Source: Candidatus Latescibacterota bacterium (GTDB lineage: Bacteria; Latescibacterota; UBA2968; UBA8231). Taken from it: DNA of 64,000 bases. The position numbers and the translations under genes were made by a program. The stretch lies in contig CBDCXV010000009.1 of the NCBI GenBank assembly GCA_965223905.1, forward strand, positions 672,001 to 736,000. Direction: 5' to 3'. Of this stretch, positions 5,631 to 64,000 are shown one piece after another (positions within the stretch are counted from its first letter, which is position 1; every line of letters begins with the position of its first letter). Under the pieces are notes generated by a model. That model was given only the letters and a program-made list of their open reading frames with translations, did no database searches and was not told the origin of the DNA.

Positions 5631-8600
5631 TCAGGCGCGGTCGATGGCGAAGGTGACGGTCTCGCCGTCGATGTCGCTCTCCTTGCGAAGCAGGACCTCT
5701 CCGGGAAGTTCGTCAAGCCGAATCTCGGTTGCCAACGTCTCGGCGGCAATGTAGTTGCGGTGGTGCCGGGAGGCGGACACAACCGGACGGGAACCCGCGA
5801 TCCACAGGCGGATTCGATCCGAAACCTCGAGCCCGGCAGTCTTGCGCAGGTTCTGCACGCGGTTCACCACTTCGCGCGCCGTCCCCTCACGGATCAGCTC
5901 TTTGTCGAGATTTACGTCGAGGCCGACGCACAGGTTGCCGTCGACGGCGACCACCACCCCTTCTTTCTCGCGGCGCGTCAGCTGCACGTCATCGGAGCCG
6001 ATGGTACCTCCGGCGACGGGCATGCGTTCCCCCGTTTCCAGGCGCGCCACCTCGGCGCGTGTCAGCTTCTCGATGAAAGCCGCAACCTCCTTCACGCGCT
6101 TGCCGAAACGGGGTCCGAGCGCCCGGTAGTTGGCCTTGCAGGAAACCTCGCTGATCTCCGCCTCGTCCTCGACGAAAACGACCTCCTTGACGTTGAGCTC
6201 GTCGGCGACGAGGTCGGCGAGGTCGGCGAGCTTTTCGGCACCGCTTTCGTCAGGGGGTAGCAGCAGCACGCGGCCGAGGGGCTGGCGGATTCTGATTTCG
6301 TGCCTGCTGCGCAAGGAGCGTCCCAGGGTCACCGCCCGCGCTGCCAGCGCCATCTGCTGCTCGAGCCCGGAATCGCGCATCTCCTCGTCTGCTTCGGGCA
6401 TGTCGCACAGGTGTACGCTCAGGGGGGCCTCGGGGTCCCACGAGCGCACCAGGTTTTGGTAGATCTTCTCGGTCGCGAAGGGCAGCACCGGCGCCAGGCT
6501 TTTTACGAAGGTCACCAGCACGCGGTAAAGAGTCGCGTACGCCGACGCCTTGTCGTCGTCGTCCTCCGATTTCCAGAAGCGGCGGCGGCTGCGGCGGATG
6601 TACCAGTTGGTGAGCTTCTCGACGAAGGCGACCATGGCCGGCACCGTCCGGTAGAGCCGGTAGGCTTCCATCTCGGCGTTGATGTCGTGGACGAGGGTCT
6701 GCAGCTCCGAGAGGATCCAGCGGTCGAGCAGGTTTGCCGCCCCGGGGTCGCGCGGTTCGGCCGGCGACCAGCGGTCGACACCGGCGTAGGTGACGAAGAA
6801 GCTGTAGGCGTTCCACAGCGGGATGATGACGTCGCGCAGACTCTGCCTGATGCCGGTTTCGGTGAGGCGCATCTCCTCGGCCTTCAGGGCCGGAGAGTTC
6901 AACAAGTAGAGGCGCAGCGCGTCGGCCCCGTAGAGGTCGAGCATCTCCGTCGGCTCGGGGTAGTTCTTCAGCCGCTTGCTCATCTTGCGACCGTCTTCGG
7001 CGAGCAGCATGCCCGTGACGATGCAGTTGCGGTACGCTGGCTTGTCGAACAGGGCCGCGGCGAGGATAGTCAGGGTGTAGAACCACCCCCGCGTCTGATC
7101 GAGGGACTCGGTGATGAAGTCGGCTGGGAAATTCTGCTCGAAGTACTCCCGGTTTTCGAACGGATAGTGGTTCTGCGCGTACGGCATCGACCCGGATTCG
7201 AACCAGCAGTCGAGAACCGCGGGGACTCTCTTCAGCACCCCGTTGCCCGACGGCGCCGGGATCTCGATGCCGTCGACGAACTGCTTGTGCAGGTCGGTGA
7301 CCGTCCGTCCGCTGAGCCGTTCGAGCTCCTCGACGCTGCCGACGCAGACGGCCTCACCTGTTTCGTCGTTGCGCCAGACCGGCAGGGGCGTTCCCCAGTA
7401 GCGGTCGCGGCTGATGCACCAGTCGCGGGCTCCCTGCAGCCACTTTCCGAAGCGCCCGCCTCGGATGTGCTCCGGGATCCACCAGATCTGCTCGTTGGCT
7501 CCCAGCATCGAATCCTTGATGCCCTCGACCCCGACGAACCAGCTCGAAATGGCCCGGTAGATCAGGGGGGATTCACAGCGCCAGCAGAACGGATACGAGT
7601 GCACCAGGGAGCTTTCGCTGAACAACTGGCCCCGGCGCCGCAGCAGGCGGATGATGTCGGTGTCGGCGTCCTTGACGAAGCGGTCTGCGTAGTCGGGGAT
7701 GGCGCCGGTAAAGCGGCAGTCCTCGTCGATCGGGCAGACCGCGGGCAGTCCCTCCCGGAGGCCGAGCTGATAGTCGTCCTCGCCGAAACCAGGTGCGATG
7801 TGGACGATGCCGGTGCCGTCGTCGGTCGACACGAAGTCCGCGGCGACGACGCGGAAAGCGCCCTCGTTCGCGAGCCCTGCGAAACAGTCGAACAGCGGCT
7901 CGTAGCGGAGGCCGAGCAGAGCTTCCGCAGGCTGCTCCTCGACCGCGGCGATCTCGTCCTCGCGCTGACGCAAGACCGGATCGAGCCGCTCGCGGGCCAG
8001 GATCAGCCGTTCGCCGTCGCGCAGCTGCACGCGGACGTACTCGCAGTCCGTGGCGATCGCCAGGGCCATGTTGGCGGGAAGCGTCCACGGCGTCGTGGTC
8101 CAGGCGAGGATCGAGGTGTTTTCCGCCTCCTTCACCCGGAAGCGGATCGTGATCGAAGGGTCCTGGGTATCGCGGTACCCCTGGTTGACCTCGAAGTTCG
8201 ACAACGCCGTGGCGCAGCGCGGGCAGTAGGCCAACGACTTGTAGCCCTCGTAGACGAGGCCGAGGTCCCAGAGGCGCTTGAACACCCACCAGACCGACTC
8301 CATGAACTCCGGGTCCATGGTGAGGTACTGGTTGTCCCAGTCGACCCAGCGCCCGACGCGGCGGACCAGCTGCTCCCACTCGGCCGTGTAGCGAAGCACG
8401 AGCGAGCGGCAGTAGTCGTTGAAGTGCGGCACCCCGTACTCGAGGATGTCCTTGCGCGATCGGAGGCCGAGCTGTTGTTCCGCCTCGTTCTCCACCGGCA
8501 GGCCGTGGCAGTCCCAACCGAAGCGGCGCTCGACCCGGTATCCGCGCATCGTCCAGTAGCGGGCCACCACGTCCTTGACGATGGAAACCAACAGGTGCCC

Positions 8601-8804
8601 GTAGTGGGGCAGGCCGCTCGCGAATGGCGGGCCGTCGTAGAAAATGAAAGGGTTGGCCTCCGGTCTCGACTGCACGGACAGCTCGTAGGCGGAGGTCTGC
8701 TCCCACAGCTCCAGGGTTTTCCGCTCCTGGGCCGGGAAGTCGACCTGGGAGGGCACCGGATCGAAGATTGGGGGCGGACTCTGTTTGCGGGCGGATTCCA
8801 CCAT
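5631..8804 (-). CDS. ileS: Isoleucine--tRNA ligase, type 2 (archaeal/eukaryote-like)
   Basis: DGPPFASGLPHYGH, GWDCHGLP, WTTTPWTLP, DWCISRDRYWG, KMSKR; 1057 aa. Confidence 0.97.
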   Translation of the reverse strand: MVESARKQSPPPIFDPVPSQVDFPAQERKTLELWEQTSAYELSVQSRPEANPFIFYDGPPFASGLPHYGHLLVSIVKDVVARYWTMRGYRVERRFGWDCHGLPVENEAEQQLGLRSRKDILEYGVPHFNDYCRSLVLRYTAEWEQLVRRVGRWVDWDNQYLTMDPEFMESVWWVFKRLWDLGLVYEGYKSLAYCPRCATALSNFEVNQGYRDTQDPSITIRFRVKEAENTSILAWTTTPWTLPANMALAIATDCEYVRVQLRDGERLILARERLDPVLRQREDEIAAVEEQPAEALLGLRYEPLFDCFAGLANEGAFRVVAADFVSTDDGTGIVHIAPGFGEDDYQLGLREGLPAVCPIDEDCRFTGAIPDYADRFVKDADTDIIRLLRRRGQLFSESSLVHSYPFCWRCESPLIYRAISSWFVGVEGIKDSMLGANEQIWWIPEHIRGGRFGKWLQGARDWCISRDRYWGTPLPVWRNDETGEAVCVGSVEELERLSGRTVTDLHKQFVDGIEIPAPSGNGVLKRVPAVLDCWFESGSMPYAQNHYPFENREYFEQNFPADFITESLDQTRGWFYTLTILAAALFDKPAYRNCIVTGMLLAEDGRKMSKRLKNYPEPTEMLDLYGADALRLYLLNSPALKAEEMRLTETGIRQSLRDVIIPLWNAYSFFVTYAGVDRWSPAEPRDPGAANLLDRWILSELQTLVHDINAEMEAYRLYRTVPAMVAFVEKLTNWYIRRSRRRFWKSEDDDDKASAYATLYRVLVTFVKSLAPVLPFATEKIYQNLVRSWDPEAPLSVHLCDMPEADEEMRDSGLEQQMALAARAVTLGRSLRSRHEIRIRQPLGRVLLLPPDESGAEKLADLADLVADELNVKEVVFVEDEAEISEVSCKANYRALGPRFGKRVKEVAAFIEKLTRAEVARLETGERMPVAGGTIGSDDVQLTRREKEGVVVAVDGNLCVGLDVNLDKELIREGTAREVVNRVQNLRKTAGLEVSDRIRLWIAGSRPVVSASRHHRNYIAAETLATEIRLDELPGEVLLRKESDIDGETVTFAIDRA

Positions 8805-8886
8805 GGCGCTGGTTGCCGGTCTGTCGCCGGCCGCTTGGTTTACTCTGCGTGCCGGGAGCTGAAGGTCGGCTCGCTGTATTCGGTCC

Positions 8887-9171
8887 CTACAGATGGATGC
8901 TGCGCAGAAACCAGATGACGATCTGCAGCAGCAGGATCAGGAACAGAGGGGTGAAATCCAGTCCGGTCGACCACAGGACATTCGGCACGTAAGGGCGCAA
9001 CCTGGCGAGCGCAGGCTCGGTCACGGCGCGCAGAAACCGGACGATCGGGTTGTAAGGGTCGGGATTTATCCAGGAGATCACCACCGCGACGATCACCACA
9101 TACATGTAACCAGTCAACAACGAGACGATGATCCCGATGACCCCCATCAGGAAATAACTGTGATCGAACAA
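8887..9171 (-). CDS. yggT: YggT family membrane protein
   Basis: SWINPDPYNPIVRFLRAVTEP...GLDFTP; TTG start with AGGAG RBS. Confidence 0.9.
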   Translation of the reverse strand: MFDHSYFLMGVIGIIVSLLTGYMYVVIVAVVISWINPDPYNPIVRFLRAVTEPALARLRPYVPNVLWSTGLDFTPLFLILLLQIVIWFLRSIHL

Positions 9172-56990: not shown

Positions 56991-59666
56991 TCAGGCATGG
57001 GTCGGGTCGCGCTTCTCCGGATCGATGTCGAGCTCGGAGATCGCGCGGCGCACCTCCTCTTGGCCGAGCGTTCCCTGGCGGTGCAGGTCGGCGATCGCGG
57101 CATAGGCGATCGTCTCGGCGTCGACCTCGAAGAAACGGCGCAGCGACGCGCGCGACTCGCTGCGGCCGAAGCCGTCGGTGCCCAGGGCGACCGGCGGCCG
57201 CGGGAACCAGCGCGCGATCGAGTTCGGCAGCGCCTTGATGTAGTCGGAGGCGATGACGAAGCTGCCGCTTTCCCCCTCGAGACATTCGCCGATCCAGGAT
57301 TTCGGGGAGGCGCCTTCCCGCTGTCGCAGGCCGACCCGTTCGCAGGCGCCGCCGTCCTCGTGCAGCTGGCGGAAGCTGGTGATCGACCAGACGCTGGCGC
57401 CGACGTCGAAGCGCTCGGCGAGGATCTCCCGCGCCCGCAGCGCCTCGTTGAGGATGCTGCCGCTGGCGAACAGGTGGGCACGCCTTTCGAGTCCTTCCGG
57501 CGCTTCCCGCAACCGGTACATCCCCCTGAGGATCCCCTCCTCCGCCCCCGGCGGCATGGCCGGCATCGGGTAGTCCTCGTTCTGGACGGTCAGGTAGTAG
57601 ACGAGGTCCTCGCCGCGGCCGTACATGCGCTCGATCCCTTCCCGCAGGATGACGGCGAGTTCGTAGCCGAAGGCGGGGTCGTAGGCGACCACGTGGGGAT
57701 AGCTGTAGGAGAGCAGGTGGCTGTGCCCGTCCTGGTGCTGCAGCCCTTCCCCGTTGAGGGTCGTGCGCCCCGAGGTGGCGCCGATGAGGAAGCCGCGCGC
57801 CCGCTGGTCGCCGGCGGCGAAGACGAGATCGCCGACGCGCTGGAACCCGAAGATCGAGTAGAAGACGAAGAACGGCAGGGTGTGAATACCGTGGCTGGAA
57901 TAGGCGGTCCCCGCGGCGATGAAGGAGGACAGGGCTCCGGCCTCGGTGATCCCCTCTTCGATCAGCTGCCCGTCCCGGGCCTCGCGGTAATAGGTGAGGG
58001 TCTCGCTGTCGACCGGCTCGTACAGCTGTCCGATATGCGAGTAGATCCCGTACTGCCGGAACAGCGCCTCCATGCCGAAGGTGCGCGCCTCGTCGGCGAC
58101 GATCGGCACGATCAGCGGCCCGAGCTGCTTGTGCCGCATCAGCTTCGCCAGGATGCGCACGAACATCATGGTCGACGACGCGCGGCGCTCTCCGGTGCCG
58201 GGAAGGAATTCGTCGAACAGGTCGCGGTGCTGCGTCTCCTCCGGCGGCGGCCCTGCCGGGCGGCTCGGCACGAACCCCCCGAGGGCCCGGCGGCGGTCGA
58301 CGAGGTACTGGCTCTCCGGGGTCTCGGCTGCGGGCCGGTAGTAGGACAGCTGCTCGACCTCCTCGTCGGAGAGGGGAATGGCGAAGCGGGTGCGGATTTC
58401 CCGCAGGGCCCCGGTGTCGAGCTTCTTCTGCTGGTGCGCCCCCATGCGCCCTTCCCCGGCTTCCCCCATTCCGTACCCCTTGATCGTCTTGGCGAGCACC
58501 ACCGACGGGGCGCCGCGGAACTCCAGGGCGGCGCGGTAGGCGGCGTACACCTTCTCGGGGTCGTGGCCGCCGCGGCGGATGGTGCGGATGTGCTCGTCGG
58601 TCAGGTGCCGGGAGAGCTTCATCAGGCTTTCGTCGACTCCGAAGAAGTGGTTGCGCTGGTAGTTGCCGTCGGAGACGCTGTACTTCTGGTACTGGCCGTC
58701 GACGAGCTCCCCCATGCGCCGCGCCAGCAGCCCCCGCTCGTCCATGGCCAGCAGCGGGTCCCAGTCGCTCCCCCAGATCACCTTGATGACGTTCCAGCCG
58801 GCGCCGCAGAAGACCGTCTCCAGCTCCTGGATGATCTTGCCGTTGCCGCGCACCGGGCCGTCGAGCCGCTGCAGGTTGCAGTTGACGACGAAGACGAGGT
58901 TGTCGAGCTGCTCGCGCGCCGCCAGGGAGATGGCCCCGAGGGATTCCGGCTCGTCCATCTCGCCGTCGCCGATGAAGGCCCAGACCTTGGCGTCGGAGGG
59001 CTGCTTGAGGCCGCGGTCCTCGAGATAGCGGTTGAAGCGGGCCTGGTAGATCGCCATGATCGGGCACAGCCCCATCGACGCCGTGGGGAACTGCCAGAAA
59101 TCGGGCATCAGCCTTGGGTGCGGGTAGGAGGACAGTCCCCCTTCCGGCCTGAGCTCGTGGCGGTAGTTGTCGAGCTGCTCTTCGCTCAGCCGCCCCTCGA
59201 GGAAGGCGCGCGCGTAGATCCCCGGGGCCGTATGCGCCTGCCAGAAGACGTGATCCCCCTCGAAACCGCGGTCGCGGCCGCGCATGAAGTGGTTGAGCGC
59301 CACCTCGTACAGGGCCGCAACCGAGGCGTAGGTCGCGATATGGCCGCCGATCGTCGGGTCGGCGCGGTTGGCGCGCACCACCATAATCATGGCGTTCCAG
59401 CGGATGATGTTGCGGATGCGCCGCTCGAGGTCGTGGCTGCCCGGATAGGGGGGCTGCGCGCCGGGGGGAATGGTGTTGACGTAGGGCGTGCTGGCGGCGA
59501 ACGGCAGCGACACCCCGCGCTCACGGGCGTGGTCGCGCAGGCGCTCCAGCAGCTCGCGGACGCGCTCCGGCCCCGAGTGCTCGAGCACGTAGTCGAGGGA
59601 CTCGAGCCACTCCCCGGTCTCGAGGGACTCGAGCAGCTCCTCGTCGGTCCGCGGCATGCCGGTCAT
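56991..59666 (-). CDS. aceE: Pyruvate dehydrogenase E1, homodimeric type
   Basis: ETGEWLESL, PYVNTI, GGHIATYAS, GDGEMDEPE..NCNLQRLDG, DEARTFG, GEGLQHQDG; true start ATG 59666 with GAGGAG RBS (891 aa). Confidence 0.95.
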   Translation of the reverse strand: MTGMPRTDEELLESLETGEWLESLDYVLEHSGPERVRELLERLRDHARERGVSLPFAASTPYVNTIPPGAQPPYPGSHDLERRIRNIIRWNAMIMVVRANRADPTIGGHIATYASVAALYEVALNHFMRGRDRGFEGDHVFWQAHTAPGIYARAFLEGRLSEEQLDNYRHELRPEGGLSSYPHPRLMPDFWQFPTASMGLCPIMAIYQARFNRYLEDRGLKQPSDAKVWAFIGDGEMDEPESLGAISLAAREQLDNLVFVVNCNLQRLDGPVRGNGKIIQELETVFCGAGWNVIKVIWGSDWDPLLAMDERGLLARRMGELVDGQYQKYSVSDGNYQRNHFFGVDESLMKLSRHLTDEHIRTIRRGGHDPEKVYAAYRAALEFRGAPSVVLAKTIKGYGMGEAGEGRMGAHQQKKLDTGALREIRTRFAIPLSDEEVEQLSYYRPAAETPESQYLVDRRRALGGFVPSRPAGPPPEETQHRDLFDEFLPGTGERRASSTMMFVRILAKLMRHKQLGPLIVPIVADEARTFGMEALFRQYGIYSHIGQLYEPVDSETLTYYREARDGQLIEEGITEAGALSSFIAAGTAYSSHGIHTLPFFVFYSIFGFQRVGDLVFAAGDQRARGFLIGATSGRTTLNGEGLQHQDGHSHLLSYSYPHVVAYDPAFGYELAVILREGIERMYGRGEDLVYYLTVQNEDYPMPAMPPGAEEGILRGMYRLREAPEGLERRAHLFASGSILNEALRAREILAERFDVGASVWSITSFRQLHEDGGACERVGLRQREGASPKSWIGECLEGESGSFVIASDYIKALPNSIARWFPRPPVALGTDGFGRSESRASLRRFFEVDAETIAYAAIADLHRQGTLGQEEVRRAISELDIDPEKRDPTHA

Positions 59667-59685
59667 GGCTTGTGCTCCTCGGCGC

Positions 59686-59822
59686 AAGAAATTGCGCTTG
59701 ATAAGGGCGTCGAGGCGCCCGGCTCGCAAGGCGCGCGACCGACGTGGGTTGGGGTACCCACCGAGGGAGCGCAACGTAGCGAGTCGGGATGCATCGGCGG
59801 CCTTATGGGGAAGAAATTGCGC
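59686..59822 (+). repeat. Long imperfect-hairpin element (MITE/REP-like or ncRNA) flanked by 12-bp direct repeats aagaaattgcgc
   Basis: Arms 59701-59727 and 59779-59806; direct repeats at 59686-59697 and 59811-59822. Confidence 0.65.
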
Positions 59823-59833
59823 CGGGGGAGCAC

Positions 59834-60787
59834 TTAGTTCACGACGTTCTCGGGCTCGCCGGCGAGGTACGCCTTGACGTTGTCGACCAGGGTGTTGAGG
59901 AGCCGCGAGCGCGCCGACCGCGTCGCCCAGGCGATGTGCGGCGTCACGAAGCAGTTTCTGGCGCTGAACAGGGGATTGTCGCGCGGCGGCGGCTCCACCG
60001 GGACGACGTCGAGCCCGGCCCCGGCGATGCGGCCGGCGTTGAGAGCGTCGGCGAGCGCCTGGTCGTCGACGAGGGGGCCGCGGCTGGTGTTGATGAGCAG
60101 GGCCGATTCCTTCATCAGGTCGATGCGCCCGGCGTCGACGAGGTTCTCCGTTTCCGGGGTCAGGGGGCAGTGCAGGCTGATGACGTCGCTGCGCCGGAAC
60201 AGGTCGTCGACCTCGGTGAACTCGACACCGGGAAAATCCGCAGGGTCGAGGAAGGCGTCGTGGGCGAGCAGCTCCATGCCGAGGGCGCGGCCGATGTTCC
60301 CGGTGCGCTGGCCGATGCGGCCGTAGCCGACGATCCCCAGGGTCAACCCGTCGAGCTCGCGCAGCGGGAAGTCCCAGTAACAGAAGTCGCGGCATTCGCT
60401 CCAGCGGCCCTCCTGGACGGTGCCGGCGTGGTGGGCGACCCGCTGGGTCAGATTGAGGACGTGAGCGAAGACCATCTGCGCCACCGAGGCGGTGCCGTAG
60501 GTCGGGATGTTGGTCACCGGGATGTCCCGCTCCCGCGTCGCCTCGATGTCGACGACGTTGAACCCGGTCGCCTGCACCCCGATGTATTTCAGGTCGGGAA
60601 GCCGGCCGATCACCTCGCGCGAGAGCTCCACCTTGTTGGTCATGACGACCTCCGCCCCCCGGGCCCGTTCCACCGCCTGCTCGTTGAGGGAATGGTCGTA
60701 GACCGTGAGCTCGCCGAGGGCCTCCAGTCCCTCCCAGCTGAGATCGCCGGGATTGAGGGTGTATCCGTCGAGTACGACAATCTTCAT
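59834..60787 (-). CDS. D-2-hydroxyacid dehydrogenase (glycerate dehydrogenase/hydroxypyruvate reductase-like)
   Basis: MKIVVLDGYTLNPGD, GIVGYGRIG, SLHCPLT, INTSRG, AGLDV..EP, TPHIAW. Confidence 0.92.
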   Translation of the reverse strand: MKIVVLDGYTLNPGDLSWEGLEALGELTVYDHSLNEQAVERARGAEVVMTNKVELSREVIGRLPDLKYIGVQATGFNVVDIEATRERDIPVTNIPTYGTASVAQMVFAHVLNLTQRVAHHAGTVQEGRWSECRDFCYWDFPLRELDGLTLGIVGYGRIGQRTGNIGRALGMELLAHDAFLDPADFPGVEFTEVDDLFRRSDVISLHCPLTPETENLVDAGRIDLMKESALLINTSRGPLVDDQALADALNAGRIAGAGLDVVPVEPPPRDNPLFSARNCFVTPHIAWATRSARSRLLNTLVDNVKAYLAGEPENVVN

Positions 60788-61346
60788 CAATCGCGTCTCC
60801 TGTCGCCCCGTGAGGGGATAGGCTTTCCGTTCGCTGCGGGGCCGCGGATAACGGGCGGCGTGGTCAGGACAGGATAAACGGATTTAGCGGGGGAGCGGGC
60901 AAGGGAAAGCGTGCGCCTGCCTTTGTCATTTGTGCTGATGGCGGTGTCACGTCGAGAGCACGAGGAACCGGCGTGGATTCTTCACGCGGCATTTCCCGGA
61001 CGGGAGGTGCGACCTTTGGAGCGCCGACAAGCTCTTCCGATAGTTCAGCCGCTGAACTCAGTTGGGCCGGGAGCCCACGGTTTTGGAGTCTGGGACTATC
61101 AGGCGACTGGGCAAACCAGCAGTTTAAGGTGGAGCTTGGCGATTCGTATCGGAGGCCGTCCTTGGGAACCGATTTCAGCGGTACGCCCTCGGCAAACGGT
61201 CCGGTTCGGACCCCTCAGACCGGGTCGCATGGACGATCGACAGCCAACCATCACCGACGCTTTGGGAAAAGCGCTCGCCGGAAATTGTAAAATTCGGATT
61301 AGCCTTCATTGATCGGAGGGGAGCGGTAGCCATACAACAGACCCGA

Positions 61347-64000
61347 ATGCATCTCACGGACAAATGGCTCTTCAGGTCCCGGGACTGGAACGACGATTGC
61401 CGGCGGCTGGCGGCGCAGGTCTCCCGGCTGGGGATCTGTCTCCTGGGCGCCGGGATGGTTGGATGGGCAGAGCCGGCGGCGGCGCAGGATGGCGGGGCCG
61501 TCGAGCTGTGCCGGAACGGCGTCGTCGTGCCTGAGCCGCAGGACTATCCAGGCCTCGTGGCTGATTGTGCAGCGCTGCTGGGCGCGTTGAACCAGTGGGA
61601 AGATTCCGGTTTGAACTGGAGCGCGGAAAGACCGATCCGTCGATGGGAGGGTGTCTTTTTGTCGCAAGACCCCCTCCCTAGTTATTTGCGTTCCACCTCA
61701 AGCGAATTGCGGGTCACCTTGCTGCGCCTGAATTCCAACTACTTGGAGGTGCTCCCCCCTGAAATAGGCCAACTGGCAAAGCTTGAGTATCTGGATTTTT
61801 CCCGGAATGAACTCAAGACCATTCCACCTGAAATAGGTCAACTTATCCAACTGAAGAGCTTGGACCTGCGTTCCAACAACTTGGAGATGCTCCCTCCTGA
61901 AATAGGTCAACTCATCCAACTGAAGGAATTGAAACTGCATCTCAACAACTTGGAGGAGCTCCCCCCTGAAATAGGTCAACTGTCAAAGCTTGAGTATCTG
62001 ACACTCTGGGCGAATGAACTCAAGACGATCCCACCTGAAATAGGTCAACTCACGCAACTGGAGACCCTGGTCCTGTCTGCCAACTACTTGGAGGAGCTCC
62101 CCCCTGAAATAGGCCAACTGGCAAAGCTTGAGTATCTGTCACTCTCGGGGAATGAATTCGAGACGATCCCTTCCGAGTTAAGCCAACTTGGAAACTTGAG
62201 GACACTCTATATCGGCTTTTGTCGACTGAGGGGAGCGATCTTGCCTGATTTGGGCAATCTCGACCAGTTGGAGTGGCTTTTCTTGGCGGGCAACTTTTTG
62301 TCGGGGGCGATTCCCCCTGAGTTGGGTCAATTGGCCTTGTTAGAGATCTTGGACCTCTCCGAAAACGATCTGACGGGAGAGATTCCACATGACTTGGGTC
62401 GCATGGCTGCCTTGGAAAGGTTGGACCTCTCCCGCAATGCCTTGAGTGGACCGATTCCGCCCGAGTTGGGTCAATTGGCCACGTTAGAGATCTTGAATCT
62501 CTCCGAAAACCATCTGACGGGGCAGATTCCGCCTGACTTGGGTCGCATGGCTGACTTGAGGGGTTTGGAACTCTCCGGCAATGACTTGAGTGGACCGATT
62601 CCGCTCGAGTTGGGTCAATTGGGGTGGCTCCGGATTCTGGACCTTTCCCACAACCGATTGAGCGGGCCCTTTCCGCCTGAGTTGGCTCAATTGGCTCGGC
62701 TCGACAGTCTGGACCTTTCCCACAACCGGTTGAGCGGGTCCCTTGGCCCCGGACTGGTCAAGCTGTTTCGTCAGAATCCGGTTGTTGTGGACTTCACCGG
62801 CAACGGAATGATCTGCGTGGCGGAGTCGCCATTTGCCTTTGGCGACGTACCCCCCTGTGACCCCCCGCCCCCGCCGGAGGGAAGGATATACTGGACGGAC
62901 CTGGGCTCGGGGGACATCCGGCGGGCCGACCTGGATGGGGGCTCCAATATCCAGATCGTGATCGATGGAGGCGGGAGCCCGGAAGGGATCGCCCTGGACC
63001 CCGCCGCAGGCAAGATGTATTGGACGAAATGGAACGGAGCCGTCGGCAAGATCCAACGGAGTGATTTGGACGGCTCGAATCCCGAAACCATCGTCGTTAC
63101 GGGGCGATGGCATCCAAGGGGGATTGCCCTGGATCTCGATGCAGACAAGGTCTACTACACGGTCTCCAGTCGCTACTTGGCCCGTGAAGCCGGAGTGGTG
63201 GTCGATGTGTACTTGTCCGGCGGGGTCAGGCGCGCGAACCTGGACGGCTCCTCGCCGGAGGACCTCGTGTGGGAGGAATGGCTTGAAGGCCTGGAGGTGG
63301 ACATCGCCCTGAACGTCAGCGCAGGAACCATGTTCTGGACGGACGGGGAATCCATCAGGCGAGCCAACCTGGACGGCACCGGCAACAGCCCATGCCTGCG
63401 CATAAACAGCGTTGACGGCATTAACACCGTTGACATCGTCCTGGACGTACCCGGAGGCAGGATCTACTGGTCGGACAGCCAGGGCATCCACCGGGCGGAC
63501 CTGGACTGCTCGAAAAGAGAGACTCTCGTCACCTTTGACGGGCAACCAGTGCCGAGGAGTCTCGCTCTGGACCTGAAGGGCGGCAGGATGTACTGGACGG
63601 ACGCCCAAGTGATCTACCGGGCGGACTTGGACGGCTCCCATGCCGCCCCCTTGTTCACCGGGGCAGAATATCCCGGAGGAATCGCCTTCGACCCGGTCGG
63701 CGACAGGATGTACTGGACGGAACCGGGAACGGAGAGAATCCGGCGGGTCGATCGGGATGGAACCCATGCCGAGACCCTGATCGCAGAGGTAAGAAGGGCT
63801 CCTGTCAGCCTCGCCCTGGACCTGGCCGGAAACAGGATGTACTGGACGGACCGGGGAACGAACAGGATCCACCGGGCGGATCTCGATGGCGATAATATCG
63901 AGGATCTCGCCGGTGGATTGACAGCCCCTGGGGGGATTGCCCTGGACGCGCCCGGGGGAAAGATGTACTGGACGAACCGGGACACGAGTGTGATTCACCG
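61347..64000 (+). CDS. Probably exported LRR + YWTD (LDL-receptor class B) repeat protein; truncated by the window end
   Basis: Not in the ORF track; translated manually, open for 884 codons. Signal-like segment (LGICLLGAGMVGWAEPAAAQ), Cys-containing cap, 15 LRRs, PPCDPPPPP linker, at least 9 YWTD-type repeats. Start uncertain. Confidence 0.9.
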   Translation, partial: MHLTDKWLFRSRDWNDDCRRLAAQVSRLGICLLGAGMVGWAEPAAAQDGGAVELCRNGVVVPEPQDYPGLVADCAALLGALNQWEDSGLNWSAERPIRRWEGVFLSQDPLPSYLRSTSSELRVTLLRLNSNYLEVLPPEIGQLAKLEYLDFSRNELKTIPPEIGQLIQLKSLDLRSNNLEMLPPEIGQLIQLKELKLHLNNLEELPPEIGQLSKLEYLTLWANELKTIPPEIGQLTQLETLVLSANYLEELPPEIGQLAKLEYLSLSGNEFETIPSELSQLGNLRTLYIGFCRLRGAILPDLGNLDQLEWLFLAGNFLSGAIPPELGQLALLEILDLSENDLTGEIPHDLGRMAALERLDLSRNALSGPIPPELGQLATLEILNLSENHLTGQIPPDLGRMADLRGLELSGNDLSGPIPLELGQLGWLRILDLSHNRLSGPFPPELAQLARLDSLDLSHNRLSGSLGPGLVKLFRQNPVVVDFTGNGMICVAESPFAFGDVPPCDPPPPPEGRIYWTDLGSGDIRRADLDGGSNIQIVIDGGGSPEGIALDPAAGKMYWTKWNGAVGKIQRSDLDGSNPETIVVTGRWHPRGIALDLDADKVYYTVSSRYLAREAGVVVDVYLSGGVRRANLDGSSPEDLVWEEWLEGLEVDIALNVSAGTMFWTDGESIRRANLDGTGNSPCLRINSVDGINTVDIVLDVPGGRIYWSDSQGIHRADLDCSKRETLVTFDGQPVPRSLALDLKGGRMYWTDAQVIYRADLDGSHAAPLFTGAEYPGGIAFDPVGDRMYWTEPGTERIRRVDRDGTHAETLIAEVRRAPVSLALDLAGNRMYWTDRGTNRIHRADLDGDNIEDLAGGLTAPGGIALDAPGGKMYWTNRDTSVIH
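61710..62766 (+). repeat. Coding LRR tandem array: seven 69-bp units then eight 72-bp units
   Basis: cctgaaatagg(t/c)caact recurs at 61758, 61827, 61896, 61965, 62034 and 62103; later units include a duplicated 144-bp pair. Confidence 0.9.

Follow-up and report, generated by a model that had tools for sequence, protein, structure and literature searches.

The window analyzed here, a stretch of 64,000 nucleotides from an uncultured Candidatus Latescibacterota bacterium, ends within a gene that encodes a protein of 1171 residues with a large LRR domain, and this domain is very probably that of an ordinary germ-line-encoded surface protein, in which a conserved framework interrupted by short variable segments (unit windows) reflects the usual evolution of tandem repeats. 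The pattern of unit windows is inherited and stable, and the proposal of the first-pass annotation that it represents a possible receptor diversification system is not supported, there being no donors, no matches to reverse transcriptases or recombinases among the large ORFs scanned nearby, and conservation of the unit windows across species and samples. When a bacterial LRR array combines a fixed framework with variable windows, this is not by itself a sign of a diversity generator; the pattern recurs in the genome's other LRR genes, and the unit windows predate the species.

Organization of the Gene and Protein

The reading frame, examined as the full CDS from the genome, is complete and intact across all 1171 codons. 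The encoded protein begins with a putative signal peptide and an N-terminal cap; 15 LRR units come next, then the YWTD propellers, and the C terminus is a sorting domain of T9SS type A. It is a secreted-type bacterial protein that combines eukaryote-type repeat domains (LRR and Ldl_recept_b) with a sorting signal. The Pfam models LRR_1 and LRR_8 match with 147.5 and 154.2 bits, each above the cut-off, LRR_4 is also matched, and Ldl_recept_b is matched as well (4.6e-36). The sorting domain at the C terminus scores 37.9 bits with TIGR04183 (cut-off 23); the genome also encodes a PorU-type T9SS sortase (617 bits, cut-off 420), and the same C-terminal tail is borne by about 50 more of its ORFs. 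A run of hydrophobic residues that ends in AAAQ is probably a Sec signal peptide, and the protein would be expected to reach the cell surface by way of Sec and T9SS. The helices of the cap correspond to model residues 6–14 and 26–39 (protein residues 48–56 and 68–81), and related N-terminal caps are present in three paralogues. A partner, perhaps a protein of a host or a matrix, is presumably bound by the propellers together with the concave side of the LRR domain. Membership in XopAE, XopAC, XopL, LIC_11051, or internalin A was considered and rejected, since the NCBIfam scores are far under the cut-offs (e.g. 228 versus 600) and represent generic LRR similarity.

Table 1. Location of the LRR gene and its features (positions are those of the window)
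Feature	Position	Strand	Description
LRR gene	61347..64000	+	5' 884 of 1171 codons (ORF list); whole CDS G000:C9:733347-736862
N-terminal 120 residues	61347..61706	+	putative signal peptide, then Cys-containing helical cap, then repeats
Seven 23-residue units	61707..62189	+	LxxLxLxxNxLxxLPPEIGQLxx; two types, order B A B B A B A
Scaffold stretch, copy 1	61735..61793	+	unit 1 position 8/9 to unit 2 position 4; divergent windows either side
Unit 2 window DFSR	61794..61805	+	one synonymous change in congener; kept in 7/8 relatives
Unit 3 window SLDLRS	61857..61874	+	unchanged in congener; kept in 6/7 relatives
Unit 4	61914..61982	+	interrupts B-A alternation; window ELKLHL at 61926-61943, the most variable; kept in 4/7 relatives
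Unit 5 window TLWA	62001..62012	+	identical in congener; kept in 8/9 relatives
Unit 6 window TLVLSA	62064..62081	+	one nonsynonymous change in congener; kept in 4/9 relatives
Scaffold stretch, copy 2 (units 6-7)	62080..62138	+	58/59 nt identical to 61735-61793
Unit 7 window SLSG	62139..62150	+	identical in congener; kept in 8/9 relatives
Transition unit 8 (odd)	62190..62258	+	between two repeat classes; Cys replaces Asn; 16-28% nt identity to units 1-7
Seven 24-residue plant-type units (9-15)	62259..62762	+	LxxLxLSxNxLSGxIPxELGxLxx
Duplicated 144-bp pair	62331-62474 (units 10-11); 62475-62618 (units 12-13)	+	
YWTD (LDL-receptor class B) propeller region, start	62877..64000	+	Pfam Ldl_recept_b; continues past window

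Repeat Units and Their Variable Positions

The segment 61707-62762 was parsed into 15 LRR units, seven of 23 residues, seven of 24 residues, and one odd unit, in which the DNA of the scaffolds is near-identical and the β-strand/loop codons differ. The first-pass description of this arrangement proved accurate. The flanking sequence caaagcttgagtatctg of units 2, 5, and 7 was found three times (61777, 61984, and 62122), with aatgaactc occurring twice and aatgaattc once; the 12-nt windows of these units and the windows of units 3, 4, and 6 are at the places claimed; the two unit types do alternate irregularly; and units 10-11 and 12-13 form a duplicated pair, with 88% nucleotide identity between units 10 and 12 and 86% between units 11 and 13. 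Tandem Repeats Finder gave periods of 69, 207 (1.9 copies, 83%), 72, and 144 (2.2 copies, 88%). The stretch of 59 nt shared by units 1-2 and 6-7 contains one mismatch and a perfect run of 43 nt, which was reached in 0 of 20,000 permutations. The plant-specific 24-residue class has the consensus LxxLxLxxNxL(S/T)GxIPxxLGxLxx, and units 9-15 fit it. A scan of 60800-64000 for inverted repeats gave eight short imperfect pairs (14-21 nt, 76-88%) and no invertible-segment architecture. It may also be noted that GC3 is 0.60 in the 23-residue units versus 0.70-0.88 elsewhere in the gene; a foreign origin of this module was considered on that account, and much of the drop in GC lies at codon position 2, in keeping with a composition rich in Leu, Asn, Ile, and Glu.

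The AlphaFold model (pLDDT 92.3, pTM 0.88) has a three-residue β-strand at LRR positions 3-5 in every unit, and is predicted to form a curved solenoid with one strand per unit, the concave side being assigned from the known fold. In this confident model the variable residues lie on and just after the strand of each unit, a point on which the first-pass interpretation is supported. When the concave codons (LRR positions 2, 3, 5, 7, and 8) were tested against the remaining codons in pairs of units of the same type, nucleotide differences were enriched in the concave codons (p < 0.05) in 7 of 12 pairs, and enrichment was absent in the pairs 2-7, 5-7, 3-6, 10-12, and 14-15. Units 1 and 6 differ at 11 of 15 nt in the concave codons versus 3 of 54 elsewhere, and those 3 include no synonymous change. 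Divergence within the units is therefore far from uniform, and simple duplication with neutral drift is insufficient to account for it; either the scaffolds must have been homogenized through gene conversion or the unit windows must be under strong selection.

Variation among Relatives and Samples

Relative to the copy of the gene in a congener (G002), the 72 nt of the named unit windows carry 2 substitutions and the 273 nt compared outside these windows carry 5 (p = 0.64), and the 12 substitutions in units 2-11 comprise 8 nonsynonymous and 4 synonymous changes. Unit-specific synonymous markers are common to the two genomes, so there has been no homogenization since they separated. Depending on the window, 4-8 of 7-9 related proteins retain the named residues, and the windows are older than the split of the two congeneric species. 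Contigs from the runs X7, X9, and X10 show no differences over 61946-62084/62115, and the same runs carry variants in the window of unit 4 (61928 A>T and 61932 A>G), which differs between runs of organisms A and B/C; it should be noted that all such population data are contigs or MAG proteins, in which rare within-population variants are invisible. The variation that is seen is of the kind usual in tandem repeats, with whole units gained or lost through joints in the conserved scaffolds, allelic mosaics, and more residue change at concave positions. The congener has exact gaps of 69 bp, corresponding to unit 4, and of 72 bp, both with their joints within scaffolds; P0122 is without unit 3, P0121 has one additional 24-residue unit, units 14 and 15 are fused in P0126, and in P0005 unit 4 is missing and unit 6 is present in two copies. 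There are at least five different layouts among 10 related genes, some unit losses being of a kind that short-read repeat collapse could mimic. Contigs of X9 and X10 have a net deficit of 144 bp, or two units, with a joint at 62479-62637 and 13 letters between. Several other joints (61656>62080, 61656>62709, 62054>62442, 62378>62709, 62681>62871, and 62738>62871) were seen in single short-sided contigs of 85% likeness that may be from paralogues.

The allele P0124 is a mosaic, in which the 23-residue units and the propellers are 100% identical to those described here but the 24-residue units are 90% identical and carry residues of the G002 type. The blocks comprising unit 1 and units 12-14 resemble the window of unit 4 in differing sharply between alleles. 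Recombination through the conserved flanks, as suggested in the first-pass annotation, has indeed taken place, as shown by the gain or loss of exact whole units among relatives, with joints in the scaffolds, and by this one mosaic allele, but a system that generates a repertoire is not supported. Identity to the congener is patchy, at 97-99% in the LRR segment 62000-62400, 91-100% in flanking housekeeping genes, and 79-93% at the N terminus; that the two lineages may recently have exchanged the LRR block was considered as a possible reading.

Among nine related proteins, 59 extra residue states were counted in 70 concave columns versus 46 in 112 other non-core positions, so that amino acid change at concave positions is about twice that at other non-core positions. 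The binding face is therefore likely to be under some pressure, either directional or diversifying. Paralogous LRR genes of the same genome likewise differ more at concave positions (0.40-0.53) than elsewhere (0.14-0.26). The LRR region as a whole is not faster-evolving than the rest of the protein, the identity to P0002 being 86-88% in the LRR region versus 71% in the propellers. The congener copy is broken, with a 13-bp duplication, a +1 frameshift, and also a DDE transposase, and three other assemblies have the gene divided among several ORFs, which suggests dispensability rather than intense selection.

These features are best explained by a slow and heritable process, with no rewriting of windows within a cell or lineage. 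On this reading, units arose by duplication of blocks of one to three units; since the scaffolds of 57-59 nt stay alike, whole units are gained or lost by unequal recombination or slippage, and the same likeness lets alleles exchange blocks; the ligand-facing positions gather amino acid changes at the higher rate given above.

Search for Donor Sequences and Enzymes

The first-pass annotation reported no recombinase or reverse transcriptase in the window and looked to donor cassettes and to downstream genes for the missing components. No copy of any unit was found outside the gene in a DNA search of the whole 7.92-Mb genome (93.6% complete). A blastn-short search with the 15 units gave 311 matches, 59 inside the gene and 252 outside, of which the longest outside match is 19 nt and lies in a paralogue; the paralogues have only 41-52% protein identity, and this search gave no template repeat for any unit. 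An exact 36-mer of the scaffold had no match in metagenome contigs. Recombinase and reverse transcriptase families likewise had no match among the 28 large ORFs scanned around the gene, over about 20 kb on its upstream side and 13 kb on its downstream side. The 14 large upstream ORFs matched only metabolic and envelope genes and the 14 downstream only ABC permeases, a phosphoesterase, and HlyD/AcrB. There is no reverse transcriptase on contig C9, the six RVT_1 matches of the genome all being elsewhere. The annotation had held that an invariant array, the absence of related cassettes, and uniform divergence along the units would speak against diversification; the first two of these essentially hold, and the third does not, divergence being non-uniform.

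Alternative Interpretations

Mis-assembly of the array was considered, since repeats in tandem with periods of 69-207 bp pose difficulties for assembly. However, three overlapping Logan contigs from X5, which may be the source sample, cover 61623-62716 with no differences, the single-contig genome of the congener keeps the order apart from exact unit indels, and P0124 has the same 15 units in a separate assembly, so that mis-assembly is very unlikely. The copying of silent donor cassettes into an expressed gene through conserved flanks, as in VLR assembly, is favored by nothing but the form of the array, in which conserved flanks surround variable windows; its main prediction fails in the lack of unit-like DNA elsewhere in the genome, the gene is complete and in frame, the windows are inherited nearly unchanged between species, and the 36-mer scan was empty, and it is regarded as highly improbable. 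A diversity-generating retroelement (DGR), or another mutagenic enzyme acting on the windows, might be suggested by the six reverse transcriptase domains of the genome, but these are on other contigs, no unit has a template-repeat copy, the windows are stable between species, and the variation is spread over many short windows of a tandem array; the usual DGR layout has one C-terminal variable region. Such an origin appears even more remote, to the point of being negligible.

A contingency-type locus, in which the scaffolds make gain or loss of units and exchange of blocks between strains frequent enough to have ecological consequences, and populations would carry standing binding variants under diversifying or host-specific selection with no dedicated enzyme, is favored by the number of layouts, the 144-bp deficit in X9 and X10, the mosaic allele, the roughly 2-fold rate of change at concave positions, and the disparity in unit 4 between organisms A and B/C. 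Nevertheless it is improbable, because most windows are unchanged across species, the LRR region is no more divergent than the propellers, the units have not been homogenized since the two genomes diverged, the gene is broken or split in the congener and three assemblies, and some differences in layout may be assembly errors. Somewhat less doubtful, but still unlikely, is a naturally shuffling binder, with identical scaffolds serving as built-in recombination sites, strains in different hosts swapping or resizing blocks, and host-specific diversifying selection on the concave face, above all in units 4 and 12-14; the surface protein would then be a determinant and marker of the host of this Latescibacterota lineage.

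Comparison with Known Systems

Foldseek matches to the model are plant LRR-RK ectodomains and Leptospira LRR proteins. For the 23-residue part, the closest solved chains are those of SHOC2 and of Leptospira interrogans LIC11098, LIC12759, and LIC10831 (PDB 4u08, 4u09, and 4u06). The Leptospira chains match with E-values of 4e-70 to 9e-57 and TM-scores, normalized to the target, of 0.75-0.81, and share the 23-residue class LxxLxLxxNxLxxLPxEIGxLxx in near-identical tandem copies, but they belong to another phylum and are without a 24-residue plant-type section, YWTD propellers, or a T9SS tail. The plant LRR-RK ectodomains are the best matches (sequence E 3.8e-179; Foldseek E 1e-24), and those of FLS2 (4mn8), MIK2 (8wec/8wei), GSO1 (6s6q), and BRI1 have in common with the bacterial protein an N-terminal cap and units of the form LxxLxLSxNxLSGxIPxxLGxLxx. 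In contrast to the plant receptor kinases, the bacterial protein has no TM helix or kinase, a T9SS tail replaces the membrane anchor, and the plant-type units are fused to 23-residue units and propellers.

The VLRs of lamprey and hagfish are also LRR solenoids, with specificity residing in concave-face residues and a conserved framework between variable patches, but their germ-line genes are incomplete, and assembly draws on hundreds of flanking cassettes and involves a cytidine deaminase, whereas the bacterial gene is complete and has no cassettes in its genome. In the LRRs of plant NLRs and RLPs and in the Listeria internalins, the solvent-exposed x residues of xxLxLxx are hypervariable, unit number changes by unequal crossing-over, and alleles are mosaic, and the mode of evolution of the present array is the same. 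Those families show clear positive selection and form large paralogue clusters, whereas here the paralogues are distant and most windows are conserved.

The protein has little importance beyond annotation. Its allele series, in which units are gained and lost, one block is mosaic, and a transposase interrupts a pseudogene, neatly illustrates the evolution of a repeat-protein binder, and might be usable as a marker of strains or hosts if the ligand were found. The bacteria concerned are uncultured and probably host-associated. Runs X1-X4, which are labelled as marine or sponge metagenome, contain only 0.07-0.11 of the words and give no evidence on habitat. The related proteins carry the names of other uncultured marine lineages. 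In a study of eukaryote-like repeat proteins (ELPs) of sponge-associated bacteria (PMC12993501), LRR-domain proteins are reported from all 10 of its sponge-associated Latescibacterota MAGs; the study gives domain counts only, and describes neither the present architecture nor variation at the level of repeats.

RESULTS

The LRR gene, whose 5′ part lies in the window, encodes a protein in which Pfam families for LRRs and LDL-receptor class B (YWTD) repeats were detected. The last ~80 residues match a T9SS type A sorting domain (score above cut-off), and the hydrophobic N-terminal stretch, which ends in AAAQ, is probably a signal peptide, judging from its sequence. The source genome, G000 (7.92 Mb, 11 contigs, 63–65% GC), encodes a PorU-type sortase, also above cut-off, and ~50 further ORFs with the same T9SS-type C-terminal domain; paralogous YWTD-propeller proteins with 33–42% identity are numerous genome-wide. 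Together, these paralogues and T9SS-tailed ORFs make up an extensive set of secreted eukaryote-like repeat proteins. LRR “eukaryote-like proteins” are reported from sponge-associated Latescibacterota MAGs (PMC12993501).

Coordinates of the LRR gene, its repeat units and associated features in G000 and the congener G002
Feature	Location	Strand	Remarks
LRR gene, first 884 codons	window 61347 to window end
LRR gene, whole CDS	G000:C9:733347-736862		1171 codons
Linker and unit 1	window 61692-61750		two allele types
Units 1-7	window 61707-62189		23 residues each, register of the first-pass annotation
Unit 8			odd transition unit between 23- and 24-residue classes
Units 9-15	window 62259-62762		24 residues each, plant type
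Pyruvate dehydrogenase E1 and D-2-hydroxyacid dehydrogenase genes	window 56991-60790	minus	directly upstream of LRR gene; 94-95% identical to G002 genes
Example regions, YWTD-propeller paralogues/T9SS-tailed ORFs	G000 C1:1617-1619k, C2:127-129k, C2:181-184k, C10:96-99k, C11:60-63k
G002 orthologue (locus L020)	G002:C1:6270000-6286000, 6129-8941		pseudogene
G002 all-LRR gene	L020 9667-13365		1232 aa

The first-pass annotation described units with near-identical flanks around short variable windows, and each of the quoted flanks and windows was found in its place. Tandem Repeats Finder reported periods of 69, 207, 72 and 144, the last agreeing with the duplicated pair 10-11/12-13 (units 10 and 12 are 88% and units 11 and 13 86% identical). 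When the units were re-registered on the first Leu of LxxLxLxxN and the concave codons (positions 2, 3, 5, 7, and 8) were compared with the rest, differences were enriched in the concave codons in 7 of 12 same-type unit pairs (p < 0.05), with no enrichment in the other 5; the contrast is strongest among units 1, 4, and 6, where 11 of 15 concave nucleotides differ but only 3–7 of the other 54. A 59-nt stretch that spans a unit boundary is common to blocks 1-2 and 6-7 with a single mismatch, a likeness attained in none of 20,000 permutations. This enrichment and the shared stretch indicate that the pattern of scaffold and variable window is real and non-random. Other LRR genes of G000 show the same clustering, with concave differences of 0.40–0.53 versus 0.14–0.26 elsewhere at the four loci where unit pairs could be compared (a fifth gave no pair). 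In a confident structure model (pLDDT 92.3), each unit has a single short β-strand at positions 3–5, which places the variable windows on the strand and the loop that follows, as had been assumed. The irregular order of the two 23-residue unit types, A and B, is real in G000 but arises because unit 4 interrupts an array that otherwise alternates regularly (B-A three times).

Conservation of the windows was assessed in nine related proteins, with P0038 and P0059 excluded because their unit orthology is unclear, P0126 represented by units 5–13 only, and the extra unit 6 copy of P0005 omitted. DFSR is kept in 7 of 8 relatives, SLDLRS in 6 of 7, ELKLHL in 4 of 7, TLWA in 8 of 9, TLVLSA in 4 of 9, and SLSG in 8 of 9. 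Concave columns carry 59 additional residue states over 70 columns, other non-core columns 46 over 112, and core columns 13 over 147. Divergence in the LRR region does not exceed that of the other parts of the protein: identities in the 23-residue units, 24-residue units, and propellers are 86, 88, and 71% for P0002 and 69, 81, and 72% for P0005. Contigs from the sequencing runs X7, X9, and X10 (two other studies), in which rare variants would be invisible, show no difference over 61946–62084/62115 and 0–1 over 61621–61780; X7 matches 62109–62280 exactly, and X9 has 10 differences over 62109–62341. The unit 4 window is the most variable, with 61928 A>T and 61932 A>G in all three runs and the same two residue changes in P0127.

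Synteny with G002 is anchored by the pyruvate dehydrogenase E1 and 2-hydroxyacid dehydrogenase genes, which lie beside the LRR gene in both genomes. Units 2–11 differ between the congeners by 12 substitutions (8 nonsynonymous, 4 synonymous), 5 of them in concave codons, and the five windows present in both carry 2 substitutions in 72 nt versus 5 in 273 nt outside (p = 0.64). Unit-specific synonymous markers are common to both, such as ggc in units 1 and 6 versus ggt elsewhere, and the mosaic is therefore older than the split and has not been homogenized since. In the G002 orthologue, unit 6 contains a tandem duplication of 13 bp, an additional G shifts the frame by +1 close to the equivalent of window 62396, and a gene for a 510-aa DDE_Tnp_1_4 transposase cuts the sequence short; the remaining 3′ part (3.7 kb, 91% identical) is found on the opposite strand at a distance of ~2.3 Mb (locus L021), an arrangement that suggests IS-mediated rearrangement. 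The gene is split into several ORFs in three other assemblies, which could reflect true decay or indel errors, and appears to be expendable in some lineages. The all-LRR gene that closely follows the transposase gene in G002 has no counterpart directly downstream in G000, where ABC permease genes are found instead.

Whole units have been gained or lost between relatives, with joints inside the scaffold, although some differences in unit number could be assembly collapse; G002 itself is assembled as one contig. Its array is short by exactly 69 bp, the leftover unit combining the head of unit 3 with the tail of unit 4, and by another 72 bp in the 24-residue part. P0122 lacks unit 3, P0121 has one additional chimeric 24-residue unit, units 14 and 15 are fused in P0126, unit 4 is absent and unit 6 present twice in P0005, and P0038 has 11 units. 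P0124 is identical to the G000 protein in the 23-residue units and propellers, but identity falls to 90% across the 24-residue units, where units 10–14 show G002-type residues; this juxtaposition identifies it as a recombinant allele. The linker and unit 1 occur as two sharply different types, one in G000, P0124, P0122, and P0121 (...QDPLPSYLRSTSSELRVTLLRLNSNYLEV) and the other in G002, P0003, and P0127 (...ETSNELRVTILSPEYHNLEE), which are set apart by a 27-bp indel and by 11 substitutions within 33 nt, whereas the following 700 nt are ~98% identical. In P0121 the first type occurs together with G002-type residues in unit 2.

DISCUSSION

There is no diversification system at the LRR array. The proposed cassette-like recombination through conserved flanks does occur as an evolutionary process, as seen in the unit indels and the recombinant allele, but neither donors nor enzymes for a dedicated system were found. 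In a whole-genome DNA search of G000 the gene itself was the sole match, and of 311 matches from short-word blastn of the 15 units, 59 fell within the gene and the best of the 252 outside was 19 nt, in a paralogue. The paralogous LRR genes, with 41–52% protein identity, are not cassettes. Among the 14 largest ORFs of the 13 kb downstream, family matches were limited to ABC permeases, a phosphoesterase, and an HlyD/AcrB pair, and among the 14 largest of the 20 kb upstream, to metabolic and envelope genes. About half of the ORFs scanned had no family match, as is usual where high-GC DNA yields spurious frames; none of the six RVT_1 domains of G000 is on contig C9. Inverted repeats around the gene are short and imperfect. 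The locus lacks the defining features of VLR-type assembly, the gene being complete and no cassettes having been found, and also those of a DGR target, there being no RT nearby and no template repeat.

The best reading is that ordinary repeat-protein evolution shaped the array. LRR units would have been duplicated in blocks, the long identical scaffolds would have mediated unequal recombination or slippage, alleles would have exchanged sequence, and the binding face would change faster than other positions. Only one feature is not fully accounted for by ordinary repeat evolution, namely saturated windows beside scaffolds nearly without synonymous change; to produce it, gene conversion in the past must have been confined to the scaffolds, or the windows must once have been under strong selection. 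In both cases the array is the product of old evolutionary change and not of a programmed system.

The protein appears to be a T9SS-exported surface binder in which the LRR face and propellers hold a partner, the LRR domain presumably working like any LRR binder. Its 23-residue part most resembles Leptospira LIC11098, LIC12759, and LIC10831 and SHOC2, and its 24-residue part plant receptor-kinase ectodomains. The 23-residue units have a lower GC3 (0.60) than other parts of the gene (0.70–0.88), and rare codons such as ATA, GGT, and CAA recur in each of them, so that this module may be foreign in origin or may be no more than an ancestral unit that was copied. Relatives of the cap and LRRs with 36–45% identity occur in MAGs of unrelated phyla (Chloroflexota, L023; Dehalococcoidia, L025; Prosthecobacter, L024), and the module has possibly spread laterally among co-occurring bacteria.
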